A stretch of 64,000 nucleotides of DNA, from positions 195 to 64,194 of the forward strand of contig JAMONS010000129.1 in the NCBI GenBank assembly GCA_027065555.1, read 5' to 3'. Shown here piece after piece: positions 9,204 to 63,833 of this stretch. Made by a program: the position numbers and the translations under genes. This DNA comes from Hyphomicrobiales bacterium. GTDB lineage: Bacteria; Pseudomonadota; Alphaproteobacteria; Rhizobiales; Devosiaceae. The notes below the pieces were generated by a model. It was not told where the DNA came from, ran no database searches, and saw only the letters and a program-made list of their open reading frames with translations. Within the stretch, counting starts at the first letter, position 1. Every line of letters begins with the position of its first letter.

Positions 9204-9327
9204 TTGTAAGCTCCATTATAGATATTATCCATTAGATAGCTTTTGATACAAAATTTCAATGAAATGTTAACTAGTTGGCTAACGAATGGTTAATATTTGA
9301 GATGGCAGGAGCAAGCAATTTAGCGAG

Positions 9328-9523
9328 ATATAGAATGGGAAAAGAATAAACGGCGGGGGTGTCGGGGACGGGCAGCCTGCGTGGCGTGAACGCAAGAGAA
9401 AATGCAGCGACCAACGGCGACAAGTATAAAGAGGCCAAAGCCCTCCTACGCTCTATACTTCTTTTGGAGCTTCAGACGGCATAAGCAGTTCTAGAGCGAG
9501 CGTTGCTCACCAAAAACAGCTAA
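9328..9523. repeat. GC-rich modular intergenic repeat, one unit with a nested insert, abutting the 3' end of tRNA-Asp
   Basis: TATAGAATGGGAAAAGAATAAACGGCGGGGGTGTCGGGGACGGG...GCGACCAACGGCGACAAG. The same core occurs at 13280-13719, 33438-33499 and 63170-63421. Confidence 0.85.
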
Positions 9524-9716: not shown

Positions 9717-11132
9717 TTATTTCGAAATTCGCAAATTCAATAATTCGTCCGCTATTTCTTTAAATGCATCAGCTAATTCACCACTATCACTAGCATCAAA
9801 ATACGAACCACCATTTCCAGCGCAATCTTCCAACAAGTTCTTAATGGTACTATTAGTAACATCAAAGGCAATAGTATAAACTATTACTTCGTCATTATTG
9901 ATATTATCACAAAGGTCTTCAGTCAAATCATTGGCTGTTGCTGAGTTAGAGCCATTATGCCATGGATAACTAGGTGAGACCGTGTTTGCTCCGTCAGTCA
10001 TTAAGACCAAAACTTTTTTTAAATCATTTGATTTTGGTGCTGCATCTGTGAAAGGTATTCCTTGTGATAATAACCTCCAACCCCAAACTAAACCAGCGGG
10101 TATATAAGTATTGTCCCTTGCACTCATACTATTTATACCACTTAGAACATTTGCTCTAACATTGGTTAGACGAGTTAAAGGGTTTGCCCTACAAAAATTC
10201 CAACTATTAAGCAAACCCGGAACTTCTTCGCTAGCGTATGAATTATCTCGTATATTTAGGGGATAGTCTCTTGAACCAACACAACCAAACCATCTATATT
10301 GTCTAGGTGATCTGGGTGTACATGTCCATACTGGAGCGCCTAAAGACCCAGTACAACCTGTGCTTACCCACCTTTGACATGCATATGGCACGCCATCGCT
10401 GTAACAAGTATCAGGAACATTATAACCTGTACAGTTTCGTGTAGAATCTGGATAAGTATTTCGGCAATAATCAGGACGAGGAACAGAATAATCACTTGGC
10501 ACATCAATGCCCGGCTCATTCCTGTTATTCATACCAATATTAACATATCGAGAAAAAGGAACTAAGCCAATTTTAACCGTTCCCCCTGTTGCCTCTTCCA
10601 TTAATGTTGTTACCATATCCTGTGCCGCATCTTTAAGGGAGCTTATTTTAGAACCATTCATAGAAAAGGTTGTATCTAAAACCAGTGCTACTTCTAAATT
10701 TGAGGCAGAGATAATTACTTCTGAAAACACAGCAATATCAAGTTTATTAATACCTATAAATTTTATAAATATGGTTGGCATGGGATAAGAAGCATCAACG
10801 CGAATACCATCATCGATTTGAGTGGCAACTATTGTTGAACCTGCGCCTATGCCAATAGAGCGCAAATTATTACTATAAATATCTTTGGCAACTATTTGCA
10901 TTTTATCGAGATCATTTTTTGCAACACGTGCAACAGCAAGTGCCGCAGAATCTGTTGCATGTTGCATTTCAGCTCTAGTCGCACTAGCCTTAGAATAATC
11001 AACAGCACCGCCCGCAAGTACTATTAATGGAATAGCCATCAATGCAAAAATAACGGCGAATGAACCCTTATTTTCATATTTGATAAATCTAGCAAACTGT
11101 TTACTTAGTTTTGCAATATTAAATATTAGCAT
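9717..11132 (-). CDS. TadG-like protein: N-terminal Flp-pilus TadE/G-type helix plus a von Willebrand factor A domain with a Cys-rich insert
   Basis: 471 aa. N-terminus KGSFAVIFALMAIPLIVLAGGAVDYS, MIDAS-like LDTTFSMNGSK, C-terminal VIVYTIAF...CAGNGGSYFDA. Paralog of 11708-13189. Confidence 0.85.
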   Translation of the reverse strand: MLIFNIAKLSKQFARFIKYENKGSFAVIFALMAIPLIVLAGGAVDYSKASATRAEMQHATDSAALAVARVAKNDLDKMQIVAKDIYSNNLRSIGIGAGSTIVATQIDDGIRVDASYPMPTIFIKFIGINKLDIAVFSEVIISASNLEVALVLDTTFSMNGSKISSLKDAAQDMVTTLMEEATGGTVKIGLVPFSRYVNIGMNNRNEPGIDVPSDYSVPRPDYCRNTYPDSTRNCTGYNVPDTCYSDGVPYACQRWVSTGCTGSLGAPVWTCTPRSPRQYRWFGCVGSRDYPLNIRDNSYASEEVPGLLNSWNFCRANPLTRLTNVRANVLSGINSMSARDNTYIPAGLVWGWRLLSQGIPFTDAAPKSNDLKKVLVLMTDGANTVSPSYPWHNGSNSATANDLTEDLCDNINNDEVIVYTIAFDVTNSTIKNLLEDCAGNGGSYFDASDSGELADAFKEIADELLNLRISK

Positions 11133-11707: not shown

Positions 11708-13189
11708 TTACTTAGAAATACGTAATTTTCTTAGTGAATCAGCAATATCTTCAAATGCTGCTTCTAATTCAGAACTATTATCAGCATCATAATAAGAACC
11801 ACCATTGCCTGCACAGTTTTGTAAAATCTCTTCAATATCGCTATCATCAACATCAAAGGCAATTGTATAGACAATAATATTATCGCCTCTTATATTACCG
11901 CATAATTCTTCAGTCTTTTCATTTGCATCATCTACATCATCACCATAATGCCATGAATCTACGTTTGAAGGCCTTGCGCCCTGATTGAGCATCCATTGAT
12001 AACCTCCAATACCTATTGATCGAGTATTAGCTCCATCAGTTAATATCACCATTACTTTTTTATTGGCATCCCCATAAGGTGCTGCATCAGTAAATGGCTC
12101 TGCATTTGACAGCAATCGCCATCCCCATATTAAGCCAACAGGTATATAAGTATAGGAGTGGTTATTTTGAGCAGTTCTCATTCTTGATATAGCACTTCGA
12201 ATGGTATCTTCATCAGAGGTTAAGCGTGTCAGAGGTCTGGTGGCCCAATAAAGATTCCAGCGTGTCATTAGACCAGGTACGGGGTCTGTATCATATGATT
12301 CATCGGTGACATTTAAGGGGTAATCACGTGAACCCATACTGCCATACCATCTAAATCGATAATCACTGCGTGCACTACATACCCATACTCTCTCGCCCCT
12401 ATCTCCAGTACAATTAAAATAGCGCCATCTTTGGCAAGTAGTTTCAACGCCATCAACTACACAATCATAACTCACTCTTTCTCGCTCACAGCTACGTGTT
12501 GAATTAGGATAAGTCCAACGACAAGAATCTGCTTGTGGTACTGAAAAATCATCGGGAATATCAATTCCCGGCTCATCTCTATTAGACGTACCGATATTTA
12601 CAGCTTGGGTAAATGGGACAAGACCTACCCTGATATTATCATTGTCAGCCCCTGAGAACAACTCCGTCACCAACAAATCTGCGGCAGTTTTAAGACCATC
12701 CATCTTTTCTCCATTCATAGAGAATGTATTATCAAGCACCATCACTACTTCTATGCCTAAAAGAGAATCCACCACTTCGGAATACACACTGACTTGTAGG
12801 CTGGATATGCCTATTAACCTCAAGAAAGATGTATTAATTGACGTTGTAACATCAACTCGTACACCGTCCTCTAATCTGGTTGCAACTAGTTCTATATTGT
12901 TTGCAAATGCGGCATTTACTAAATTATCGGTAAAAACATTTTCTGCAATTTCTTGCATTTCCTCATCATCATTCTTATCAGCCTTTACAGCTGCAAGAGC
13001 GGCTACATCTACTGCCACTTGCATTTCTGAACGTGCCGATGAAACCGCTGAATAATCTACCATAGCCCCTGAAAAAGCCAAAATCGGCAAAAGGACGATA
13101 GCAAAAATAACAGCAACTACGCCTTTGTCTTCTCTTGTTAAGAACTTCAAAAACGATGATGATATTTTAGACAATGAAAATGATTGCAT
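11708..13189 (-). CDS. TadG-like protein: N-terminal Flp-pilus TadE/G-type helix plus a VWA domain with a Cys-rich insert
   Basis: 493 aa. REDKGVVAVIFAIVLLPILAFSGAMVDYS, LDNTFSMNGEK, IIVYTIAF...CAGNGGSYYDA. GAGGG Shine-Dalgarno 6 nt before the ATG. Confidence 0.85.
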   Translation of the reverse strand: MQSFSLSKISSSFLKFLTREDKGVVAVIFAIVLLPILAFSGAMVDYSAVSSARSEMQVAVDVAALAAVKADKNDDEEMQEIAENVFTDNLVNAAFANNIELVATRLEDGVRVDVTTSINTSFLRLIGISSLQVSVYSEVVDSLLGIEVVMVLDNTFSMNGEKMDGLKTAADLLVTELFSGADNDNIRVGLVPFTQAVNIGTSNRDEPGIDIPDDFSVPQADSCRWTYPNSTRSCERERVSYDCVVDGVETTCQRWRYFNCTGDRGERVWVCSARSDYRFRWYGSMGSRDYPLNVTDESYDTDPVPGLMTRWNLYWATRPLTRLTSDEDTIRSAISRMRTAQNNHSYTYIPVGLIWGWRLLSNAEPFTDAAPYGDANKKVMVILTDGANTRSIGIGGYQWMLNQGARPSNVDSWHYGDDVDDANEKTEELCGNIRGDNIIVYTIAFDVDDSDIEEILQNCAGNGGSYYDADNSSELEAAFEDIADSLRKLRISK

Positions 13190-13279: not shown

Positions 13280-13719
13280 GGTGGGGTCGGGAGCGTAAGA
13301 GACTAACAGCCTGCCCGTACTAGATACGGGGCGGCAAGAATAAAGAAAAGCAACTTAGCCAATTATAGAATGGAAAAAGAATAAACGGCGGGGGTGTCGG
13401 GGTTGGGAGCATAAGCGACCAACGGCGACAAGAATAAAGAAAGCAACCTAACAAGATTATAGAGTGGGAAAAGAACAAACGGCGGGGGTGTCGGGGTCGG
13501 GAGCGTAGCGACCAACGGCGACAAGAAAAAATGAGACCAACGGCGACAAGAATAAAGAAAGCAACAGCGCGCCCTACGCTCCTAATGGAGCTACGGAGCG
13601 GCATAAGCTATTCTAAGGTTATTATAGGATTTTAGTTTGTTTCTGGCAGTCCGCCTACGCCAAGGCTTCGGTGGACATAAGCTATTCTAAGGTTCACTAT
13701 GTTCACCAAGAATAGCTAA
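13280..13719. repeat. Array of three units (about 95-bp period) of the GC-rich modular repeat plus hairpin modules, abutting the 3' end of tRNA-Val
   Basis: Units begin at about 13280, 13387 and 13480 (GGCGGGGGTGTCGGGGTYGGGAGC...GACCAACGGCGACAAGAATAAAGAAAGCAAC). Followed by hairpin modules CCCTACGCTCC..GGAGCGG and GTCCGCCTACGCCAAGGCTTCGGTGGAC. Confidence 0.88.
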
Positions 13720-28238: not shown

Positions 28239-28439
28239 ATGCCAGACTTCCCTCTGCCGTCATGTCGTTGAAAAACGGCATCCAGCAGCCCTTTGAATTT
28301 ATAAAAATTGCAGTTAATAACTCTAATTTTTGCAAAACAGAAGAAGTTAGGAGTGAATTTTCTTAAATTAATATAAAGAAAACAACGCTAATGGATACCG
28401 TTTTTCAACGGCATGACGATTGAGAGTGACTTCCAGCAT
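28239..28439. repeat. MITE-like element: about 45-bp imperfect terminal inverted repeats around an AT-rich 109-bp core
   Basis: Left arm 28239-28283 ATGCCAGACTTCCCTCTGCCGTCATGTCGTTGAAAAACGGCATCC. Reverse complement of right arm 28393-28439 ATGCTGGAAGTCACTCTCAATCGTCATGCCGTTGAAAAACGGTATCC. About 36 of 45 positions match, with one 2-nt indel. Confidence 0.7.
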
Positions 28440-32317: not shown

Positions 32318-33499
32318 ATGGCAATAAACTCCTTAAAGGGGCTAACTGGCCAACTGACTATTGATTTGGGGGCCATTGTTAAAAATTATCAGGCGCTAAA
32401 TGCAATTAGCGCCAATTCGCTAACGGGTGCTGTTGTAAAGGCAGATGCCTATGGTTGTGGCATGTTGCCTGTTGCTAGCGTTCTTTATCAGGCTGGGGCT
32501 AGGTTTTTCTTTGTAGCAACGCCAAGTGAAGCGATTGTTCTAAGGGCTGAATTAAAAGACGCTCATATTTTTGTGTTTAATGGCCTATATCCAAATTCAG
32601 CAAAATTATATGTAGAACAGCGCATAATGCCAATATTAAACTCAGCCCAAATGCTTGAAGAATGGCTATCATTTTGCATTGCAAATAATGAGTTATTTCC
32701 AGCGGCAATTCATTTCGATACCGGAATGGGACGGCTTGGCATTAAAATGAATGAAGTCGATTGGGTAAAAGACAAGATTTCGCAAGTTGGGTTTTTGCCG
32801 CAAATGATTATGAGCCATCTTGCTTGTGCTGATATTTTGGGACATGAAAAAAACCGTATGCAGCTAATTTTTTTCAAGGCTATTGCAAAACAATTTCCAA
32901 ATATTCCTTTTTCTCTTGCCAATTCAGCTGGCATAATGAGCGGGCGGGCAAATCACTTTCAAATGGTTCGTCCAGGAATTGCGCTTTATGGTGGACGAGC
33001 AATTAACGGCAAGCCAAACCCCATGAAACCAGTGGTTAATCTCAAAGTCCCTGTGTTACAGGTTTTTGATGCAAAAGCTGGTGAGACTATTGGCTATGGC
33101 GCAACTTACACTATTGATAGAAATAGCAAAATTGCTATTTTGGCACTTGGATATGCTGATGGTTTCTTGCGCTCACTTTCTGGCACAAATTCTAGGCATG
33201 GCGGGCGCATTCTTATCAATAATAAAATATTACCTGTAATTGGTCGGGTTTCAATGGATTTAATCGCTGTTGATGTAACTCAACTACATGGATTGGGGCC
33301 AAACCCCGGTGATATGGTAGAGGTTTTAGGCAATATAATATCTATTGATGATCAGGCTGATCTGGCAGGAACTATTGGTTATGAGATTTTAACCTCCCTA
33401 AAAGGTCGATATAATAAATCATATATTTTACCCAACGAGAGAAAGAATGGCGGGGGTGTCGGGATCAGGAGCGTTAGCGACCAACGGCGACAAGAATAA
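32318..33499 (+). CDS. alr: Alanine racemase with a repeat-derived C-terminal extension
   Basis: 393 aa. PLP lysine motif VVKADAYGCG. Conserved end IGYEILTSL..RY, followed by about 20 extra residues (NERKNGGGVGIRSVSDQRRQE) read from the intergenic repeat. Confidence 0.93.
   Translation: MAINSLKGLTGQLTIDLGAIVKNYQALNAISANSLTGAVVKADAYGCGMLPVASVLYQAGARFFFVATPSEAIVLRAELKDAHIFVFNGLYPNSAKLYVEQRIMPILNSAQMLEEWLSFCIANNELFPAAIHFDTGMGRLGIKMNEVDWVKDKISQVGFLPQMIMSHLACADILGHEKNRMQLIFFKAIAKQFPNIPFSLANSAGIMSGRANHFQMVRPGIALYGGRAINGKPNPMKPVVNLKVPVLQVFDAKAGETIGYGATYTIDRNSKIAILALGYADGFLRSLSGTNSRHGGRILINNKILPVIGRVSMDLIAVDVTQLHGLGPNPGDMVEVLGNIISIDDQADLAGTIGYEILTSLKGRYNKSYILPNERKNGGGVGIRSVSDQRRQE
33438..33499. repeat. 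Single copy of the GC-rich repeat core embedded in the alr 3' end / radA start junction
   Basis: GAGAGAAAGAATGGCGGGGGTGTCGGGATCAGGAGCGTTAGCGACCAACGGCGACAAGAATAA matches the core at 9341-9425, 13376-13440 and 63326-63375. Confidence 0.88.
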
Positions 33500-34875
33500 T
33501 GCCAAAAAATCGCTCCTCATTTATTTGTCAATCTTGCGCTGCAATTTCCACTCAATGGGCGGGGCGATGCGAAGCGTGTGGGGAATGGAATTCAATAATT
33601 GAAGAATTACAAAATACAGGAGTTGGCTCTGGGCCAAAAGCCACAAAGGCTTCGGGCAAACCAGCACAACTTTCTTCACTTCGCGGCAAGCCAGAAGATG
33701 CGGAGCGTATAATTTCTGGACTAGCAGAATTAGATAGAGTAAGCGGCGGTGGTTTTGTTAAAGGCTCAACAATGTTGGTCGGCGGCGATCCCGGAATTGG
33801 TAAATCCACACTATTATTACAAGCGGCAAGCGCTTTAGCTAACAAAGGATATTCAGTAATTTATATTTCTGGAGAAGAAGCCATTGCGCAAGTGCAATTA
33901 CGTGCCAAAAGGCTTGGTCTAGCAGATAGCCCTGTTAAACTAGCCAGCGAGACCAATGTTGAAATAATTCTATCAACTCTCGAACATCAAAATGGAGCAG
34001 ATTTAGTTATTATTGATTCTATTCAAACATTATGGACAGATAGAGTTGATAGCGCTCCCGGTACTGTGACACAAGTTAGAACCAGCGCTCAGGCACTTAC
34101 CAGATTTGCCAAAAAAAGCGGTGCAGCAGTTGTTCTGGTTGGGCATGTAACTAAAGACGGGCAAATTGCAGGACCTCGTGTTGTTGAACATATGGTTGAT
34201 GCAGTGGTTTATTTTGAAGGCGATGCATCTCATACCTATAGAATTTTACGTGCTGTAAAAAACCGTTATGGCGCAACTGATGAAATTGGTGTGTTTGAAA
34301 TGACCCAAAAAGGTCTTAGCGAGGTTAGTAACCCCTCTGCCCTGTTTCTTGATCAGCGTGATGAAAGCGCCACTGGTTGTGCGGTATTTGCTGGAATGGA
34401 GGGCACACGTCCATTATTAGTTGAAATTCAAGCATTAGTTGCTCCCTCACCGCTTGGCACGCCAAGACGGGCAGTTGTTGGCTGGGATAGTTCAAGATTA
34501 TCAATGATTTTAGCGGTACTTGAAACCCATTGCGGGGTAAAAATTGGCGCAAATGATATATATCTCAATGTTGCAGGCGGTTTAAAAATTAGCGAGCCTG
34601 CCGCTGATATGGCGGTAGCTGCGGCGCTTATTTCTTCACTCACAAATCGAGTATTACCAAAAGAGGCAGTGTTTTTTGGCGAAATCAGCCTCTCAGGCGG
34701 CACTAGAGCAGTCGTACATTCAGCATTAAGATTAAGAGAAGCTGCAAAACTTGGATTTACGAGCGCATACACTGGAAAATTTAGTTCTGAAAAAACAAGT
34801 TCTGCCATCAAATTGATCGAATTCGCTGATCTGTTAGCATTAGTTAGTAAAATTGGCTCTTTTAAGGACGGCTAA
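33499..34875 (+). CDS. radA: DNA repair protein RadA
   Basis: 458 aa. Zinc finger CQSCAAISTQWAGRCEACGEWNS, Walker A GDPGIGKST and the KNRYG motif. Confidence 0.96.
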   Translation: MPKNRSSFICQSCAAISTQWAGRCEACGEWNSIIEELQNTGVGSGPKATKASGKPAQLSSLRGKPEDAERIISGLAELDRVSGGGFVKGSTMLVGGDPGIGKSTLLLQAASALANKGYSVIYISGEEAIAQVQLRAKRLGLADSPVKLASETNVEIILSTLEHQNGADLVIIDSIQTLWTDRVDSAPGTVTQVRTSAQALTRFAKKSGAAVVLVGHVTKDGQIAGPRVVEHMVDAVVYFEGDASHTYRILRAVKNRYGATDEIGVFEMTQKGLSEVSNPSALFLDQRDESATGCAVFAGMEGTRPLLVEIQALVAPSPLGTPRRAVVGWDSSRLSMILAVLETHCGVKIGANDIYLNVAGGLKISEPAADMAVAAALISSLTNRVLPKEAVFFGEISLSGGTRAVVHSALRLREAAKLGFTSAYTGKFSSEKTSSAIKLIEFADLLALVSKIGSFKDG

Positions 34876-39649: not shown

Positions 39650-40102
39650 TTATGAGTCAAAACCTAGAAAATTTGTTTCAAAAACAAACCACGAAAAGTC
39701 TAAAAATAACAAAAATAGCGAAATCAGGAAAATCCTAAACGAGCGTAGTTTTTTTGGCTTGCAAGATTTGTGGGTACAAGCACTTGCTGTTTTTGCGCAA
39801 TCTACCTGATAGGCGTAAAGGTTAAAAGCACCGCTTAACGCTACCATTATTGTAGCAAACACCAATAAATGCACATGATATTCGTTCACAAAACTATATA
39901 TTGGGTTGCTCGCCAAAGCAGCGCCAAGCCCAATAGTTGTACCTAAAGCAATAAGCGATGCCCCAATGGGAATAACACAACATAAAAGATGCGGAATAAA
40001 TGAGAGCATTGTTACAGTAAATGTAGTTTTTTGTACATTAAGTGTATTTTTTTGTATATTTGCTGTTTTCATTGGACTAGCTTGCCTGTTAAAATTTAAC
40101 AC
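39650..40102 (-). CDS. Hypothetical Cys-rich 3-TM membrane protein (MerT/MerF-like vicinal CC in TM1)
   Basis: The ORF has a GTG at 40102 and in-frame ATGs at 40072 (MKTANIQ) and 40009 (MLSFIPHLLCC). TM1 is IPHLLCCVIPIG, and the cytoplasmic loop CAKTASACTHKSCKPKK is Cys/His-rich. The start is uncertain. Confidence 0.6.
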   Translation of the reverse strand: MLNFNRQASPMKTANIQKNTLNVQKTTFTVTMLSFIPHLLCCVIPIGASLIALGTTIGLGAALASNPIYSFVNEYHVHLLVFATIMVALSGAFNLYAYQVDCAKTASACTHKSCKPKKLRSFRIFLISLFLLFLDFSWFVFETNFLGFDS

Positions 40103-40164: not shown

Positions 40165-40620
40165 ATGACAAATTGCGATCATACTTTGTGTAAAACTAGC
40201 GCCCTCAAAGAGGCAGAGCGAGTATGCGAGCAACTTGGAGCTCGCTTTACCGATCAACGTCGTAATGTGTTTGAGATTCTATGGCAAAGCCATAAAGCGA
40301 TGACTGCCGCCGATATTATGAATGAAATGACCAATAAACAGCCACCAATTACCTATCGTGCCTTGGAGTTTTTGAAAAAATCTGGGCTTATCCATCATGT
40401 AACTAGCCTAAATGCATATGTCGGTTGCATTTATGCAAAAGACCCCAATCATATTGGACAATTACTGATTTGCACAAATTGTCGTGATATTAACGAAATT
40501 GAACCAAAAAATGCTGTAAGCGAATTGATTAAAGCGGCAAAAAATCAAGACTTCACCCCCTCACTTACCCATATTGAAATGCTTGGCATCTGCAAAACAT
40601 GCAATAATGCGACTAGTTAG
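40165..40620 (+). CDS. zur: Fur family transcriptional regulator, Zur-like
   Basis: 151 aa: YRALEFLKKSGLIHHVTSLNAYVGC...LICTNCRDINEI...IEMLGICKTC. This is the alpha-proteobacterial Zur pattern with two CxxC pairs. Confidence 0.8.
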   Translation: MTNCDHTLCKTSALKEAERVCEQLGARFTDQRRNVFEILWQSHKAMTAADIMNEMTNKQPPITYRALEFLKKSGLIHHVTSLNAYVGCIYAKDPNHIGQLLICTNCRDINEIEPKNAVSELIKAAKNQDFTPSLTHIEMLGICKTCNNATS

Positions 40621-59753: not shown

Positions 59754-60206
59754 TTAATGGGTGCGAGTGATATTTCTCTTGATGAAATAATCAACTGATA
59801 ACATTCCTCCGCCATATTTAATTACATAAATTAGCGATACCGCCCACAGTCCGTGCAAAATGTAAGCTTCAGGAAACACAAAAGTCTGTATGACTATGCT
59901 CATGACCAATAAGCCAAGAGCGCTAAAGCGTGCGCCAAGTCCGATTATTAATAATGTAGCAAGAATTACCTCGCCATATGCCGCCATATATGCGCCCATC
60001 ACGGGAGGCAATGGCACGCCAGAAAAGTCATTTTTAAATAAATAGAAAGTTGTATCGCTAACACTAAACCAGCCGTCAAACTTCAAACTACCTGACTTAA
60101 AAAATTGCAAGCCAACAAATATTCGTGCGCCAAGTGCTAGAATAAATAATGGGAATTGTGATAATAGGTTATTTGCCCAATTTACTAAATTCACTAACTT
60201 TTGCAT
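59754..60206 (-). CDS. DoxX family membrane protein (last gene of the bufferin-type operon)
   Basis: 150 aa with 4 TM helices and an AGGAGAG Shine-Dalgarno. 18 nt after the DUF2063 gene. Confidence 0.85.
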   Translation of the reverse strand: MQKLVNLVNWANNLLSQFPLFILALGARIFVGLQFFKSGSLKFDGWFSVSDTTFYLFKNDFSGVPLPPVMGAYMAAYGEVILATLLIIGLGARFSALGLLVMSIVIQTFVFPEAYILHGLWAVSLIYVIKYGGGMLSVDYFIKRNITRTH

Positions 60207-60224
60207 TTTCTCTCTCCTAGATTA

Positions 60225-60992
60225 TTAGTTTTCAGCCGCAATATCGGTGATTAACCCCAATGCGAATAATTGCCCAAAACAATAGTTGAAATCAAAATTT
60301 TGATCTTGTTTTATAGCTTTTTCATAAGCGTTGCCAAGTGTTCGACCATTCATAATCGCACTATAAAATATACAAGCGGCAGGATCTATATTGGCTATTA
60401 ACACATCAACATTTGGGCGGCATATTAAAATAGCTTGCTTAACCTCTAGGTCAATATCAACCATATCATTATCTTCATGACCTTGCCAAATTGAATATAT
60501 AGGCCAGTTTGATTTTAATATAGCAGCGCTTGGGTGTGTTTTGAAAGTTAAGTTTGAGTGTTCTTTAGCGTCAATTTGCTGGATTTTTGCAATATCCAAA
60601 GGTTTGGCATCAATAGCGTGATAGGCATTGCGCCACATTATTTCCAAACGAGCGATATCTGCTAAATAAGGTAACTGATCCGCAGGGCTATATTGGCTAA
60701 TAAAGAACGCAAATTCATCGCCATATTCAAATAACATTGGTGATGTTGGTGGGTTTTTGCGAATAAAATCTACCGCTAATGCTTTAAAAAATTCATCGCC
60801 AACTAAAGCAAAACAAATAGGAAAATTAGATTTTAATGCTGCAATTAAACCCACTATTACATTATTACGATAAACTGCAAATCGGCTGGTAATATTTGGT
60901 TTTTTTAAGGCAACTAAACCTTTAGGAATAGGAGCAGAGGGTACTAATAATGCTGCAACAAATTCTTTATGTATTTGTTTAAAGCTGGCCAT
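60225..60992 (-). CDS. bufC: DUF2063 protein (MbnC-like partner of the MNIO enzyme)
   Basis: 255 aa with N-terminal signature RFAVYRNNVIVGLIAALKSNFP. 2-nt gap to the DUF692 gene. Confidence 0.85.
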   Translation of the reverse strand: MASFKQIHKEFVAALLVPSAPIPKGLVALKKPNITSRFAVYRNNVIVGLIAALKSNFPICFALVGDEFFKALAVDFIRKNPPTSPMLFEYGDEFAFFISQYSPADQLPYLADIARLEIMWRNAYHAIDAKPLDIAKIQQIDAKEHSNLTFKTHPSAAILKSNWPIYSIWQGHEDNDMVDIDLEVKQAILICRPNVDVLIANIDPAACIFYSAIMNGRTLGNAYEKAIKQDQNFDFNYCFGQLFALGLITDIAAEN

Positions 60993-60994
60993 AT

Positions 60995-61876
60995 TTATGA
61001 TTTTACCTTAGTTGAGACATGCTTTTTCATAAAGCCATCAGCAATTTTAGCTTCGTTAAATAGAACTGGCCATTCTGGTATATCGCCATCCCACTCAATT
61101 AGACTAGGTTTTGGGCCTGTTTTAGCAATTAGCTTCTTATATATGTCCCAAACATCATCAATAACTGCACTTGAATGATCATCAATTAATAATTTTCCAA
61201 TACCTAAATCATCATCTTCTATTAACTCGACACTATGTCCGCCTAAATGTATTTCTTCAACATGTTCAACTGGATATGCATCTAAATAATCATAAGCATC
61301 ATAGCCTTGATTATTAGCTGACACAAAAATATTATTAACATCAAGCAACAAGCCACAACCAGTGCGTTTGACAAGTTGATCTAAAAATTCAGTTTCAGCA
61401 TAAGGGCTAGATTCATAGGCTAAATATGCTGATGGGTTTTCAATTAGCACTTGTTTGCCCATATAGCTCTGCATTTCATCTACGTGATTTGCTAAATGAT
61501 TAAGCGTTTCCTCAGTATATGGCAGTGGTAAAAGATCATTAAAAAACTTACCCTCATGGGTTGACCAAGCCAGATGTTCAGAGATTAGCCAAGGCTCATA
61601 CCTATCCTTCAAGGCTTTAAAGAGCCTTAGATGTTCAGGGTCTAACCGCTCACTTGGACCACCTAAAGACATGCCAACCCCGTGCAAAGAGATGGGATAT
61701 AACTCACGAATGGCGGTTAGATATTTATGCGGAGGGCCACCAGCACCCATATAATTTTCAGGGTGAACTTCAAACCAGCCTAGCTTTGGTTTTTCTTGCA
61801 ATATGGTTTTATAATGCTGAGCCTTAAGGCCAACACCAGCTAGGTTAGGAATTTTTTTTAATCTAAAATTCGACAT
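60995..61876 (-). CDS. bufB: DUF692 / MbnB-like multinuclear non-haem iron oxidase (MNIO)
   Basis: ATG at 61876 (MSNFRLKK...). Motifs WFEVHPENY, ISLHGVG, ISEHLAW, LIENPSAY and EEIHLGGH are typical of the DUF692 TIM-barrel. Confidence 0.88.
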   Translation of the reverse strand: MSNFRLKKIPNLAGVGLKAQHYKTILQEKPKLGWFEVHPENYMGAGGPPHKYLTAIRELYPISLHGVGMSLGGPSERLDPEHLRLFKALKDRYEPWLISEHLAWSTHEGKFFNDLLPLPYTEETLNHLANHVDEMQSYMGKQVLIENPSAYLAYESSPYAETEFLDQLVKRTGCGLLLDVNNIFVSANNQGYDAYDYLDAYPVEHVEEIHLGGHSVELIEDDDLGIGKLLIDDHSSAVIDDVWDIYKKLIAKTGPKPSLIEWDGDIPEWPVLFNEAKIADGFMKKHVSTKVKS

Positions 61877-61954
61877 GTTTAAACCTAACAATTATTAGAT
61901 AAAACAACCCACTTCTAGAGGATAGTGGGTTGCTCAAGTAGAATAAGTGTTAAA

Positions 61955-62275
61955 TTACTTATCCATATCCATTTTCATTTTTTCAGCCATTTCAGCAGTG
62001 ATTTCTACTAGGCTACCAGTTCCTAGCGGGGTTTCTATTTCTTCACATGTACCTGTAGGAACCAAGCTCCACGCATTACCTTGATAATCGACAGTGCTTG
62101 AGCCTTGACAACTTGTACCTGCACCAGCTTTGCAATCATTCTCACCAGCTTTAGCAACACCATAGCATTTTTCTTTGTCTGAATCAGCAAATGCAGGGGC
62201 TACCATTACAGCAGATGAAAGAGCCGCAGCAATTGCGCCAGCTACTAGGATTTTTGACGGGTTGAAATGTTTCAT
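61955..62275 (-). CDS. bufA: DUF2282 secreted Cys-containing precursor peptide (bufferin-type RiPP precursor)
   Basis: GGAG Shine-Dalgarno 6 nt before the ATG at 62275. Signal peptide [30 protein letters not shown]|DSD. Core EKC-x10-C-x7-C-x20-C with [12 protein letters not shown]. Met-rich tail [13 protein letters not shown]. Confidence 0.85.
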
Positions 62276-62436
62276 TTTATTCTCCAAATTATTATATCAA
62301 TCAAATGATCTGATTGCTTGAATATGACCATATCCATATCAATGTCATTTGCAAATCACTTAGACACTAAAAATTATCACTTAAACTCACGCGTTCGTGA
62401 ACAGCAATTTCTAGCCTATAAAAATAATAACACCAA

Positions 62437-63027
62437 CTAATCAGTCTTTTTGCCCCCCTTCCCCTTCAATTCATCTTGATGTTCAAGCAATTTCTCTTGA
62501 TATTCATCGCCATCACCATAATCTTCAAATGATCGATAATATTTATGCACACCATGAATGCGCAATGAATGTTTTATCGGGCACCAATATTTCTCAGTTC
62601 GTGCCGCTACTTCTCGGGCATAAGCAATTACCCCATTGCCGTAAGAGCAATAAAGACAGTTCATTTTTTCGATCATATTAAGATAGGAAAGTTTATGACG
62701 ATCAAAACTCATATAGTTTTTACGCTTAACTTTTTCAATTTTATAAATAGGAAAACAAATCGCCTGATAAAAAGAAACCATTATATCAAGCAAAACAAAA
62801 GCAAAAATTAGCGAATAAATCACTGGAACTGTTAAAATGACTAGCAAATTTGCATTAAACAAATAGCGCAACGCACCAACTTTTGCTTTTTGGTGCATGT
62901 TTTTTATTCCCTCACCAAGAGCCAAAAATTTCGCCTCCATTAAGGCGTGTCTTTTTGCTATCTCTTTTTCCAACTCACCCTCAAGCTGATTTATCCTATC
63001 AATAATTTCACTGATTCTATTGCTCAT
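62437..63027 (-). CDS. Hypothetical membrane protein with an N-terminal coiled coil and a Cys/His-rich C-terminal domain
   Basis: 196 aa. Coiled coil (residues 1-45), long hydrophobic hairpin LLVILTVPVIYSLIFAFVLLDIMVSFYQAICFPIY, then NCLYCSYGNG...YWCPIKHSLRIHGVH. Confidence 0.7.
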   Translation of the reverse strand: MSNRISEIIDRINQLEGELEKEIAKRHALMEAKFLALGEGIKNMHQKAKVGALRYLFNANLLVILTVPVIYSLIFAFVLLDIMVSFYQAICFPIYKIEKVKRKNYMSFDRHKLSYLNMIEKMNCLYCSYGNGVIAYAREVAARTEKYWCPIKHSLRIHGVHKYYRSFEDYGDGDEYQEKLLEHQDELKGKGGKKTD

Positions 63028-63169
63028 ATCTCTTCCTCTCAGGTTTTTTGTTTTTAGGATTTTTAGAGTTTACTACAAAATAAGGATTTTGTTTAGTGCC
63101 AGCATATTAAAACTGAAGCTGATAAATTGTTTGAGCCTATAATATCTATTATTGGAGTGAATTTAAGTA

Positions 63170-63421
63170 AAAAAAATGAGCAAAGCAACCAACTACGACC
63201 AGCCTTAACGATGGAGCATGGAAAAAAATAACGGCGGGGGTGTTCCGCCTACGCCAAGGCTACGGCGGACAAGCGGGGTCGAGAGGGTGAATAACCCAAA
63301 GGCAACAAGAATAAAAATGCGTAAGGAAAAAGAATAAACGGCGGGGGTGTCGGGGACGGGAGCGTAAGCGACCAACAGCCTGCCCCGTACTAGATACGGG
63401 GGCGACAAGCATAAAAGAGCA
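63170..63421. repeat. Two units of the GC-rich modular repeat with nested hairpin modules, abutting the 3' end of tRNA-Leu(GAG)
   Basis: Unit 1 core GGCGGGGGTGT is interrupted by TCCGCCTACGCCAAGGCTACGGCGGA. Unit 2 is GGCGGGGGTGTCGGGGACGGGAGCGTAAGCGACCAA plus the nested CAGCCTGCCCCGTACTAGATACGGGGG. Confidence 0.85.
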
Positions 63422-63508
63422 TGGTGCGGTCGAGAAGACTCGAACTTCCACGGGTTTTACCCCACAGCGACCTCAACGCTGCGCGTCTACCAATTCCGCC
63501 ACGACCGC
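63422..63508 (-). tRNA. tRNA-Leu (anticodon GAG)
   Basis: Reverse complement GCGGTCGTGGCGGAATTGGTAGACGCGCAGCGTTGAGGTCGCTGTGGGGTAAAACCCGTGGAAGTTCGAGTCTTCTCGACCGCACCA. Long variable arm; anticodon loop TT-GAG-GT. Confidence 0.92.
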
Positions 63509-63599: not shown

Positions 63600-63833
63600 C
63601 TAACTTGAGCTTGCAACTTGCTCTGAAATTTTCACCGACAACTGACCATCTTCAATGAGAATTTCTCCATTAGCTATATGCTGCTCGTTAGCATATATCT
63701 TCAATGGATCAAGCTCCCCCGAATCAAGTTCAATCACTGCACCACGACCAAGACGCAACAAATGATGTACAGGCATAATTGTTGAACCTAGTTCAACCAA
63801 AATATCAACTTCGATATCTTCAAAAATAGACAT
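63600..63833 (-). CDS. fliN: FliN/SpoA-domain flagellar motor switch protein (short form)
   Basis: 77 aa: IEVDILVELGSTIMPVHHLLRLGRGAVIELDSGELDPLKIYANEQHIANGEI matches the surface presentation of antigens (SpoA) domain of FliN. Confidence 0.8.
   Translation of the reverse strand: MSIFEDIEVDILVELGSTIMPVHHLLRLGRGAVIELDSGELDPLKIYANEQHIANGEILIEDGQLSVKISEQVASSS

Follow-up and report, generated by a model that had tools for sequence, protein, structure and literature searches.

The stretch of DNA analysed here (64,000 nucleotides of contig JAMONS010000129.1, hereafter the window) comes from a low-GC marine alphaproteobacterium that is OCS116/Devosiaceae-like. Towards its end, at 59754–62275, lie four co-directional open reading frames (ORFs) on the minus strand, in the order bufA-bufB-bufC-bufD, which in all likelihood form a bufferin biosynthetic operon of the Buf1 type, a family also classed as ‘captophorins’. 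bufA (61955–62275) encodes a precursor of the BufA1/DUF2282 family with 106 residues counted from the ATG, or 110 if translation starts at a TTG lying 12 nt upstream. bufB (60995–61876) encodes a multinuclear non-haem iron-dependent oxidase (MNIO, DUF692) of 293 residues from the ATG, or 298 from a TTG start. bufC (60225–60992) encodes a DUF2063 (HvfC/BufC) partner protein of 255 residues, and bufD (59754–60206) a DoxX-family membrane protein of 150 residues. Read along the minus strand, the intergenic gaps are 78 nt (bufA-bufB), 2 nt (bufB-bufC, so that bufC begins directly after the MNIO gene) and 18 nt (bufC-bufD). This gene content and order had been proposed in an initial annotation made from the sequence, whose coordinates and gaps we reproduced, and an identical public metagenome contig carries gene calls of equal lengths (106/293/255/150 residues). 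A GGAG at 62282–62285 stands 7 nt before the bufA ATG, and GGAGAG, a ribosome-binding site, precedes the bufD ATG.

Membership of the four families was established with Pfam profile hidden Markov models, the check that the initial annotation had suggested for its assignments, and all matches are far above the cut-offs. PF10048 (DUF2282/BufA1) matches the bufA product with E = 3.9e-25 (88 bits, cut-off 22.4), PF05114 (MbnB_TglH_ChrH) the bufB product with E = 2e-101, PF09836 (DUF2063/HvfC_N) the bufC product with E = 1.2e-22, and PF07681 (DoxX) the bufD product with E = 4.4e-13 (50.1 bits against 23.6). In NCBIfam, BufB scores 369.5 bits with NF050167 MNIO_BufB (‘MNIO family bufferin maturase’), above the curated equivalog cut-off of 310, and stays below the cut-offs of the other MNIO equivalogs, namely HvfB, MbnB, ApyH and ChrH. 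Close homologues of BufA are named ‘BufA1 family periplasmic bufferin-type metallophore’ by NCBI. The initial annotation had described the system as hidden behind DUFs and labelled hypothetical by standard pipelines. This is true of older records and those of the Joint Genome Institute, which read ‘DUF2282’, ‘hypothetical’, ‘uncharacterized membrane protein’ and, misleadingly, ‘DNA-binding domain-containing protein’. It is outdated for current resources, because Pfam and NCBIfam already name the BufA1, BufB and HvfC/BufC families; these two databases and the Prokaryotic Genome Annotation Pipeline use the terms BufA1, MNIO family bufferin maturase and HvfC/BufC.

BufA contains exactly four cysteine residues, Cys37, Cys48, Cys56 and Cys77. 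The resulting spacing, C-x10-C-x7-C-x20-C, is found in all 120 of the best 120 of 3170 homologues, the set to which all statistics on BufA homologues refer. Residues 1–30 (62186–62275) form a predicted Sec-type signal peptide, assigned by sequence rules, with the n-region MKHFNPSK, a hydrophobic core at residues 9–23 and the c-region A-F-A|D; its AxA position aligns with an AxA in the homologues. The predicted core of 76 residues (61958–62185) has its cysteines at positions 7, 18, 26 and 47 and, unmodified, a calculated monoisotopic mass of 7965.56 Da. It is free of histidine and has the ligand loop usual in this family. A search by sequence for relatives of BufA among solved structures returned nothing meaningful. 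The AlphaFold2 model of BufA has β-strands at residues 34–38 and 69–73, as described for Buf1, where these segments contain CysI and a tryptophan. All of the motifs quoted in the initial annotation are present, including the signal peptide end ..VMVAPAFA|DSD, the four-cysteine core, and the BufB and BufC motifs given below.

The C-terminal tail of BufA (residues 93–106; 61958–61999, minus strand) is rich in Met and Lys, predicted to be helical, and lineage-specific. Its methionines are spaced i, i+4, i+8, and the low-confidence AlphaFold2 model has a helix at residues 94–105. Four or more methionines after CysIV occur in only 4/120 homologues, which are the closest relatives, and the stretch after CysIV is 29 residues long here compared with a median of 19.5 residues in the homologues (n = 120). 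The usual endings in the family are ...R-P-A or ...RDxP. Periplasmic copper proteins use Met-rich motifs to bind Cu(I), and the Met-rich helix of BufA could plausibly provide a second, weak Cu(I) site. An alternative explanation of the Met/Lys-rich tail is AT-rich codon bias.

The enzyme BufB features the motifs WFEVHPENY (starting at residue 34), SLHGVG (63), SEHLAW (99), IENPS (145) and IHLGGH (209). Among solved structures, the HvfB-like 3BWW comes closest (E = 1.3e-40); it was included in the comparison of metal ligands. The MbnB residues H90, E133, D163, N166, H192, D208 and H210 align with H101, E146, D179, N182, H210, D232 and H234 of BufB, and all seven are conserved. For MbnB H54 and E239, the counterparts were assessed solely from the BufB motifs SLHGVG and LIEWD. 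The third-site residues N175, D242 and H244 of HvfB, which are essential for activity, have conserved counterparts in BufB at the last three positions of that site. From homology with characterised relatives, the predicted role of BufB is to turn CysII and CysIII of BufA into 5-thiooxazoles.

BufC carries the motif RFAVYRNN at residue 37 and has 629 full-length homologues, some of which are labelled HvfC/BufC. No relative of known structure was found by sequence search. The AlphaFold2 model of BufC is confident (pLDDT, the predicted local distance difference test, of 94.5), and its fold is most similar to those of TglI, as seen in the TglHI complex (8HCI/8HI7, E ~1e-7), and NGO1945 (3DEE, a DUF2063 structure, E = 1.3e-5). 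The fold of BufC is thus established at the level of a predicted model and, together with the PF09836 match, agrees with the proposal that the DUF2063 protein is the MNIO partner. By analogy, BufC is predicted to recruit the precursor to BufB. A search of the BufC C-terminal domain for a recognition element of ribosomally synthesised peptides with post-translational modifications (RiPPs) matched TbiB1 alone, with E = 1.3. BufD contains multiple hydrophobic segments and is an accessory membrane protein; in Caulobacter, DoxX is dispensable both for modification and for protection.

The nearest genomes are marine metagenome-assembled genomes (MAGs) that bear the labels Alphaproteobacteria, OCS116 cluster, Hyphomicrobiales or Devosiaceae. 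With its counterpart at the closest locus (L001), BufB shares 95% identity, and with those at four others (L002–L005) 74–79%; the operon as a whole is 90–95% identical to that of a second MAG. Gene order was counted across 80 loci from related genomes. In every one of them bufA stands before bufB, and bufC comes next in 78/80; the two exceptions (L024 and L053) are near the end of a contig or locus. bufC is followed by a DoxX gene in 47/80 loci, and about 22 more have a divergent DoxX. The GC content of the operon (0.35–0.43) is like that of the window (0.395), which gives no compositional indication that it was transferred recently. The flanking genes are housekeeping genes: tyrS, an alpha/beta hydrolase gene and suf genes downstream; tRNA-Leu, a FliN-like ORF, and lipoate ligase, miaB-like and folate genes upstream of bufA. 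The loci of the OCS116 relatives likewise have housekeeping flanks only.

The spacer between bufA and bufB contains a terminator-like stem-loop (61901–61935, minus strand), with the core stem CAACCCACU/AGUGGGUUG at 61924–61932 and 61905–61913 followed by UUUU. Its folding free energy is -17.4 kcal/mol (z = -4.66), and 0/200 shuffled sequences fold as well. Hairpin and T-run are retained in the five relatives L001–L005. More widely, 19/58 bufA-bufB spacers of related loci have z < -3, compared with 1/57 matched upstream controls (Wilcoxon p = 0.015). Partial terminators raise the ratio of precursor to enzyme in other RiPP operons. From its sequence, we infer that the stem-loop and its U-tract would act as a partial terminator, yielding more precursor mRNA than enzyme mRNA. 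A search of two bufferin papers found no mention of a bufA-bufB stem-loop.

Three non-coding blocks upstream of bufA are invariant between the window and L001–L005, while the sequence around them has diverged. In minus-strand reading, these are TCACGAACGCGTGA (TCAC-N6-GTGA; 62387–62400), the middle motif GTGATTTGCAAATGA (GTGATTTGCAANTGA; 62345–62359) and the palindrome GCAATCAGATCATTTGATTG (CAATC-N9-GATTG; 62298–62317). The middle motif occurs once in the window and once in the locus of each relative. The three blocks are probably cis-regulatory elements. Scans for consensus promoters and terminators showed no enrichment over shuffled sequence, and no promoter was assigned. RNAalifold on the 5' leader paired invariant columns only, so there is no covariation to tell a DNA operator from an RNA structure.

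The initial annotation had remarked on the absence of an adjacent extracytoplasmic function (ECF) sigma/anti-sigma pair, and this observation extends well beyond the immediate neighbours. A phmmer search with RpoE found no ECF sigma factor among the ORFs of the window; there is none within 10 kb beyond the window end, and neither an ECF sigma factor nor NrsF is among the recurrent flank genes of the 80 related loci. An adjacent ECF sigma/NrsF anti-sigma pair is present in some Buf1 biosynthetic gene clusters (BGCs) and does not define them. Judging from the conserved blocks, expression would depend on an unlinked regulator acting there, rather than on an adjacent SigF/NrsF pair. A LysR-type transcriptional regulator (LTTR) acting on the T-N11-A-like palindrome CAATC-N9-GATTG was considered and is not supported: the window contains no LTTR, and the motif occurs in 7/80 loci against ~4 expected and is absent where an LTTR gene adjoins. 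Elsewhere in the window, a Fur-family regulator gene and a divergent ORF of 150 residues form a pair at 39650–40102 (minus strand) and 40165–40620 (plus strand). The ORF contains a ...HLLCCVIPIG... motif and has no Pfam match; its product could be a small membrane protein that transports or binds metal, with control of the Fur/Zur type.

The published Buf1 core BGC consists of a precursor, an MNIO, a DUF2063 protein and a DoxX protein, the last being frequent without being essential. The closest characterised system is buf1ABCD of Caulobacter vibrioides (CCNA_03363–03366), which makes bufferin 1 (Leprevost et al., PNAS 2024; PMC11626156) and has the same four families in the same order, with DoxX last. 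Its BufA1 is a DUF2282 protein that likewise carries a Sec signal peptide, and its cysteines (Cys12, Cys23, Cys31 and Cys52 of the core) have the C-x10-C-x7-C-x20-C spacing found here. In that peptide, CysII and CysIII carry thiooxazoles (-4.03 Da each), and CysI and CysIV form a disulphide bond (PMC11626156). Copper binding, and protection from or induction by copper, have been shown for Caulobacter and by expression in E. coli, and thiooxazole, rather than oxazolone/thioamide, is now supported for the wider captophorin class. Several features set the present locus apart from Caulobacter buf1. The Caulobacter operon has a sigF/nrsF pair beside it that is missing here; the core is 76 residues long here and 68 in Caulobacter, with a C-terminal helix rich in Met and Lys where the family usually ends in ...R-P-A or ...RDxP; and the terminator-like bufA-bufB hairpin and the low-GC marine host are further differences.

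The same four-gene architecture is found in the gig (gold-induced genes) operon of Cupriavidus metallidurans and in operons of Legionella pneumophila and Bordetella pertussis, all now recognised as Buf1 BGCs. These are under metal-stress or virulence regulators, whereas no such control is evident at our locus. The literature background given in the initial annotation (gig in Cupriavidus, bufferins in Caulobacter, conversion of Cys to 5-thiooxazole, and copper sequestration) was accurate (PMC11626156). More distant are hvfABCX of Haemophilus influenzae (oxazolin), the Fontimonas fontiphorin and the Neisseria gonophorin, which share the MNIO, DUF2063 and DoxX proteins, a Sec-exported precursor and Cys-derived 5-thiooxazole copper ligands. 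Their precursors feature EGKCG repeats instead of the DUF2282 fold, and the proteins encoded here fall below the HvfB, HvfC and HvfX cut-offs. The methanobactin system MbnABC also combines an MNIO with a partner protein in a four-electron oxidation of Cys to a copper-binding heterocycle, and shares the Fe-ligand residues with BufB. Unlike the Buf1 type, it makes an oxazolone/thioamide on a short leader-core peptide, which leaves the cell to acquire copper.

Every defining feature of a Buf1 BGC that can be checked from sequence is present at the locus, the distinguishing features of oxazolin/Hvf and methanobactin systems are not, and nothing contradicts Buf1 membership. Known Buf1 precursors number in the thousands, and for captophorins as a class RefSeq has been reported to contain more than 20,000 BGCs (PMC13097082). 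The locus is an ordinary addition to this large, well-described family.

By homology, the product is most likely a periplasmic 5-thiooxazole peptide that buffers copper. BufA would be translated as the 106-residue precursor. In the cytoplasm, the iron-dependent oxidase BufB and its DUF2063 partner BufC would oxidise Cys48 and Cys56 to 5-thiooxazoles. The modified peptide would be exported by Sec, and signal peptidase would cleave after AFA30, removing residues 1–30; a Cys37–Cys77 disulphide bond would form in the periplasm. The 76-residue product would then fold around one Cu(I)/Cu(II), bound with very high affinity through two sulphur and two nitrogen atoms of the thiooxazoles, and so buffer excess copper, with the DoxX protein BufD as an accessory in the membrane. 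We infer the thiooxazole chemistry, the disulphide bond, Sec export and copper binding by homology.

The interpretation has its limits. No copper-responsive regulator or other copper gene was found nearby, so a response to copper is assumed. The AlphaFold2 model of BufA has a low mean pLDDT of 61.7, and was rejected for this reason as a query for fold searches. BufC scores 47 with the HvfC equivalog model against a cut-off of 142, which points to a BufC-type rather than an HvfC-type partner, and BufA gives a weak, sub-threshold match to the NCBIfam BufA2 model, as expected for a Buf1-type precursor. As for the bufA-bufB hairpin, the U-tract after it is short (UUUU followed by AUCU), and a simple terminator scan gave no call.

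The alternative that survives best, though we consider it unlikely, is that the locus makes the same kind of thiooxazole peptide for a purpose other than defence against copper stress: constitutive copper buffering or delivery to periplasmic cuproenzymes, handling of another thiophilic metal, or protection from oxidative or sulphur stress. The missing SigF/NrsF stress module is consistent with such a role, as are the housekeeping neighbours here and in the OCS116 relatives and the window-like GC content of the operon. In the literature, MerC fusions and doxX genes point to other metals and stresses, large bufferins have been suggested to be reservoirs, and the gig operon is only a minor protection system in Cupriavidus. 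However, all characterised members (Caulobacter Buf1 and Buf2, oxazolin and fontiphorin) bind copper and protect against it, and the sequence holds no hint of another metal; the core is histidine-free and the ligand loop family-typical.

It is very improbable that the operon is a decaying or silent remnant, in which the hairpin terminates fully, no dedicated regulator remains, and the precursor is made yet stays unmodified. A strong stem-loop with a U-tract does lie between bufA and bufB, there is no adjacent regulator, and databases commonly contain orphan bufA genes that lack an MNIO gene. Against this stand the four intact ORFs with their tight 2 and 18 nt spacing, the 90–95% identity to the second MAG and the conserved catalytic residues. 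Retention of the same hairpin layout in diverged relatives with intact bufBCD argues for attenuation rather than decay.

The weakest alternative, an oxazolin/Hvf-type or methanobactin-type system in place of Buf1, draws on the BufB scores of 215.5 bits with the HvfB model and 54 bits with that for MbnB, the weak matches of BufC and BufD (44) to HvfC and HvfX, and the HvfB-like nearest structure 3BWW, but is refuted by the membership tests and hardly credible: all of these scores are under the curated cut-offs (HvfB 360, MbnB 325, HvfC 142, HvfX 80) and the BufB model alone was passed, the precursor is a DUF2282 protein, no ORF in the window contains the EGKCG motif, and we found no MbnA/MbnC signature and no TonB-dependent receptor or exporter genes.

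The gene upstream of bufA (62437–63027, minus strand) is the Cys/His-rich neighbour noted in the initial annotation. It encodes a membrane protein of 196 residues that is helical in its N-terminal region, strongly hydrophobic at residues ~52–79, and ends in a C-terminal region with a C-x2-C...C-x3-H motif. The neighbour is there as described; we rejected it as a fifth component of the system, since it stands beside buf genes in only 1/80 loci (the near-identical L001), and its family is found elsewhere in unrelated contexts, without a link to buf genes. This family comprises at least 1400 clusters at 90% identity, with 45–55% identity across diverse Proteobacteria, and has no Pfam domain.

A genomic island beside tRNA-Leu was also rejected: there is no integrase, the GC content of the operon is window-like, and the adjoining GC-rich stretch is a dispersed repeat. 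This repeat family has a core of ~60–95 nt (...AGAATAAACGGCGGGGGTGTCGGGG.CGGGAGCGTAAGCGACCAAC...) and occurs at 9295–9447, 13283–13573, 33440–33517 and 63211–63390. Three of the four sites are directly 3' of tRNA genes (Asp, Val and Leu-GAG), with tandem copies beside tRNA-Val. The repeat accounts for the GC bump at 63000–63500 and for several spurious ORFs, and has no Rfam match at the gathering threshold. Between tRNA-Leu and the lipoate ligase and miaB-like genes, which lie beyond the window, is a stand-alone FliN/SpoA-domain ORF of 77 residues (63600–63833, minus strand; PF01052, E = 2e-17); no other flagellar or type III secretion genes are visible near it. Two further features are remote from the operon. 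Two paralogous TadE/G-like proteins with VWA domains, related to Flp pili, are encoded at 9717–11132 and 11708–13189 (both minus strand) and share a 76-nt repeat with 74% identity. An intergenic inverted repeat at 28258–28418, before a DUF2147 gene, has 32-nt arms that are 88% complementary and 97 nt apart.

Three of the features described, namely the recurrent stem-loop, the tail rich in Met and the conserved promoter motifs at a locus that lacks an ECF sigma factor, could be of use in studying buf regulation and the question of whether bufferin tails take part in capturing metal. A speculative proposal, which we would not expect to hold in full, is that the OCS116/Devosiaceae-like clade has a two-module metallophore. 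In it, an amphipathic Met helix (M96, M100 and M104 on one face, plus M102) would hand Cu(I) to the high-affinity site of the thiooxazole core, an unlinked regulator on the three upstream motifs would take the place of SigF/NrsF, and an attenuator after bufA would set the ratio of precursor to enzyme. For RiPP metallophores in general, the locus illustrates that such a cluster is recognisable to a reader from raw sequence alone. For the organism, it adds a bufferin operon to what is known of an uncultured marine lineage of low-GC Alphaproteobacteria in which copper handling has hardly been studied.

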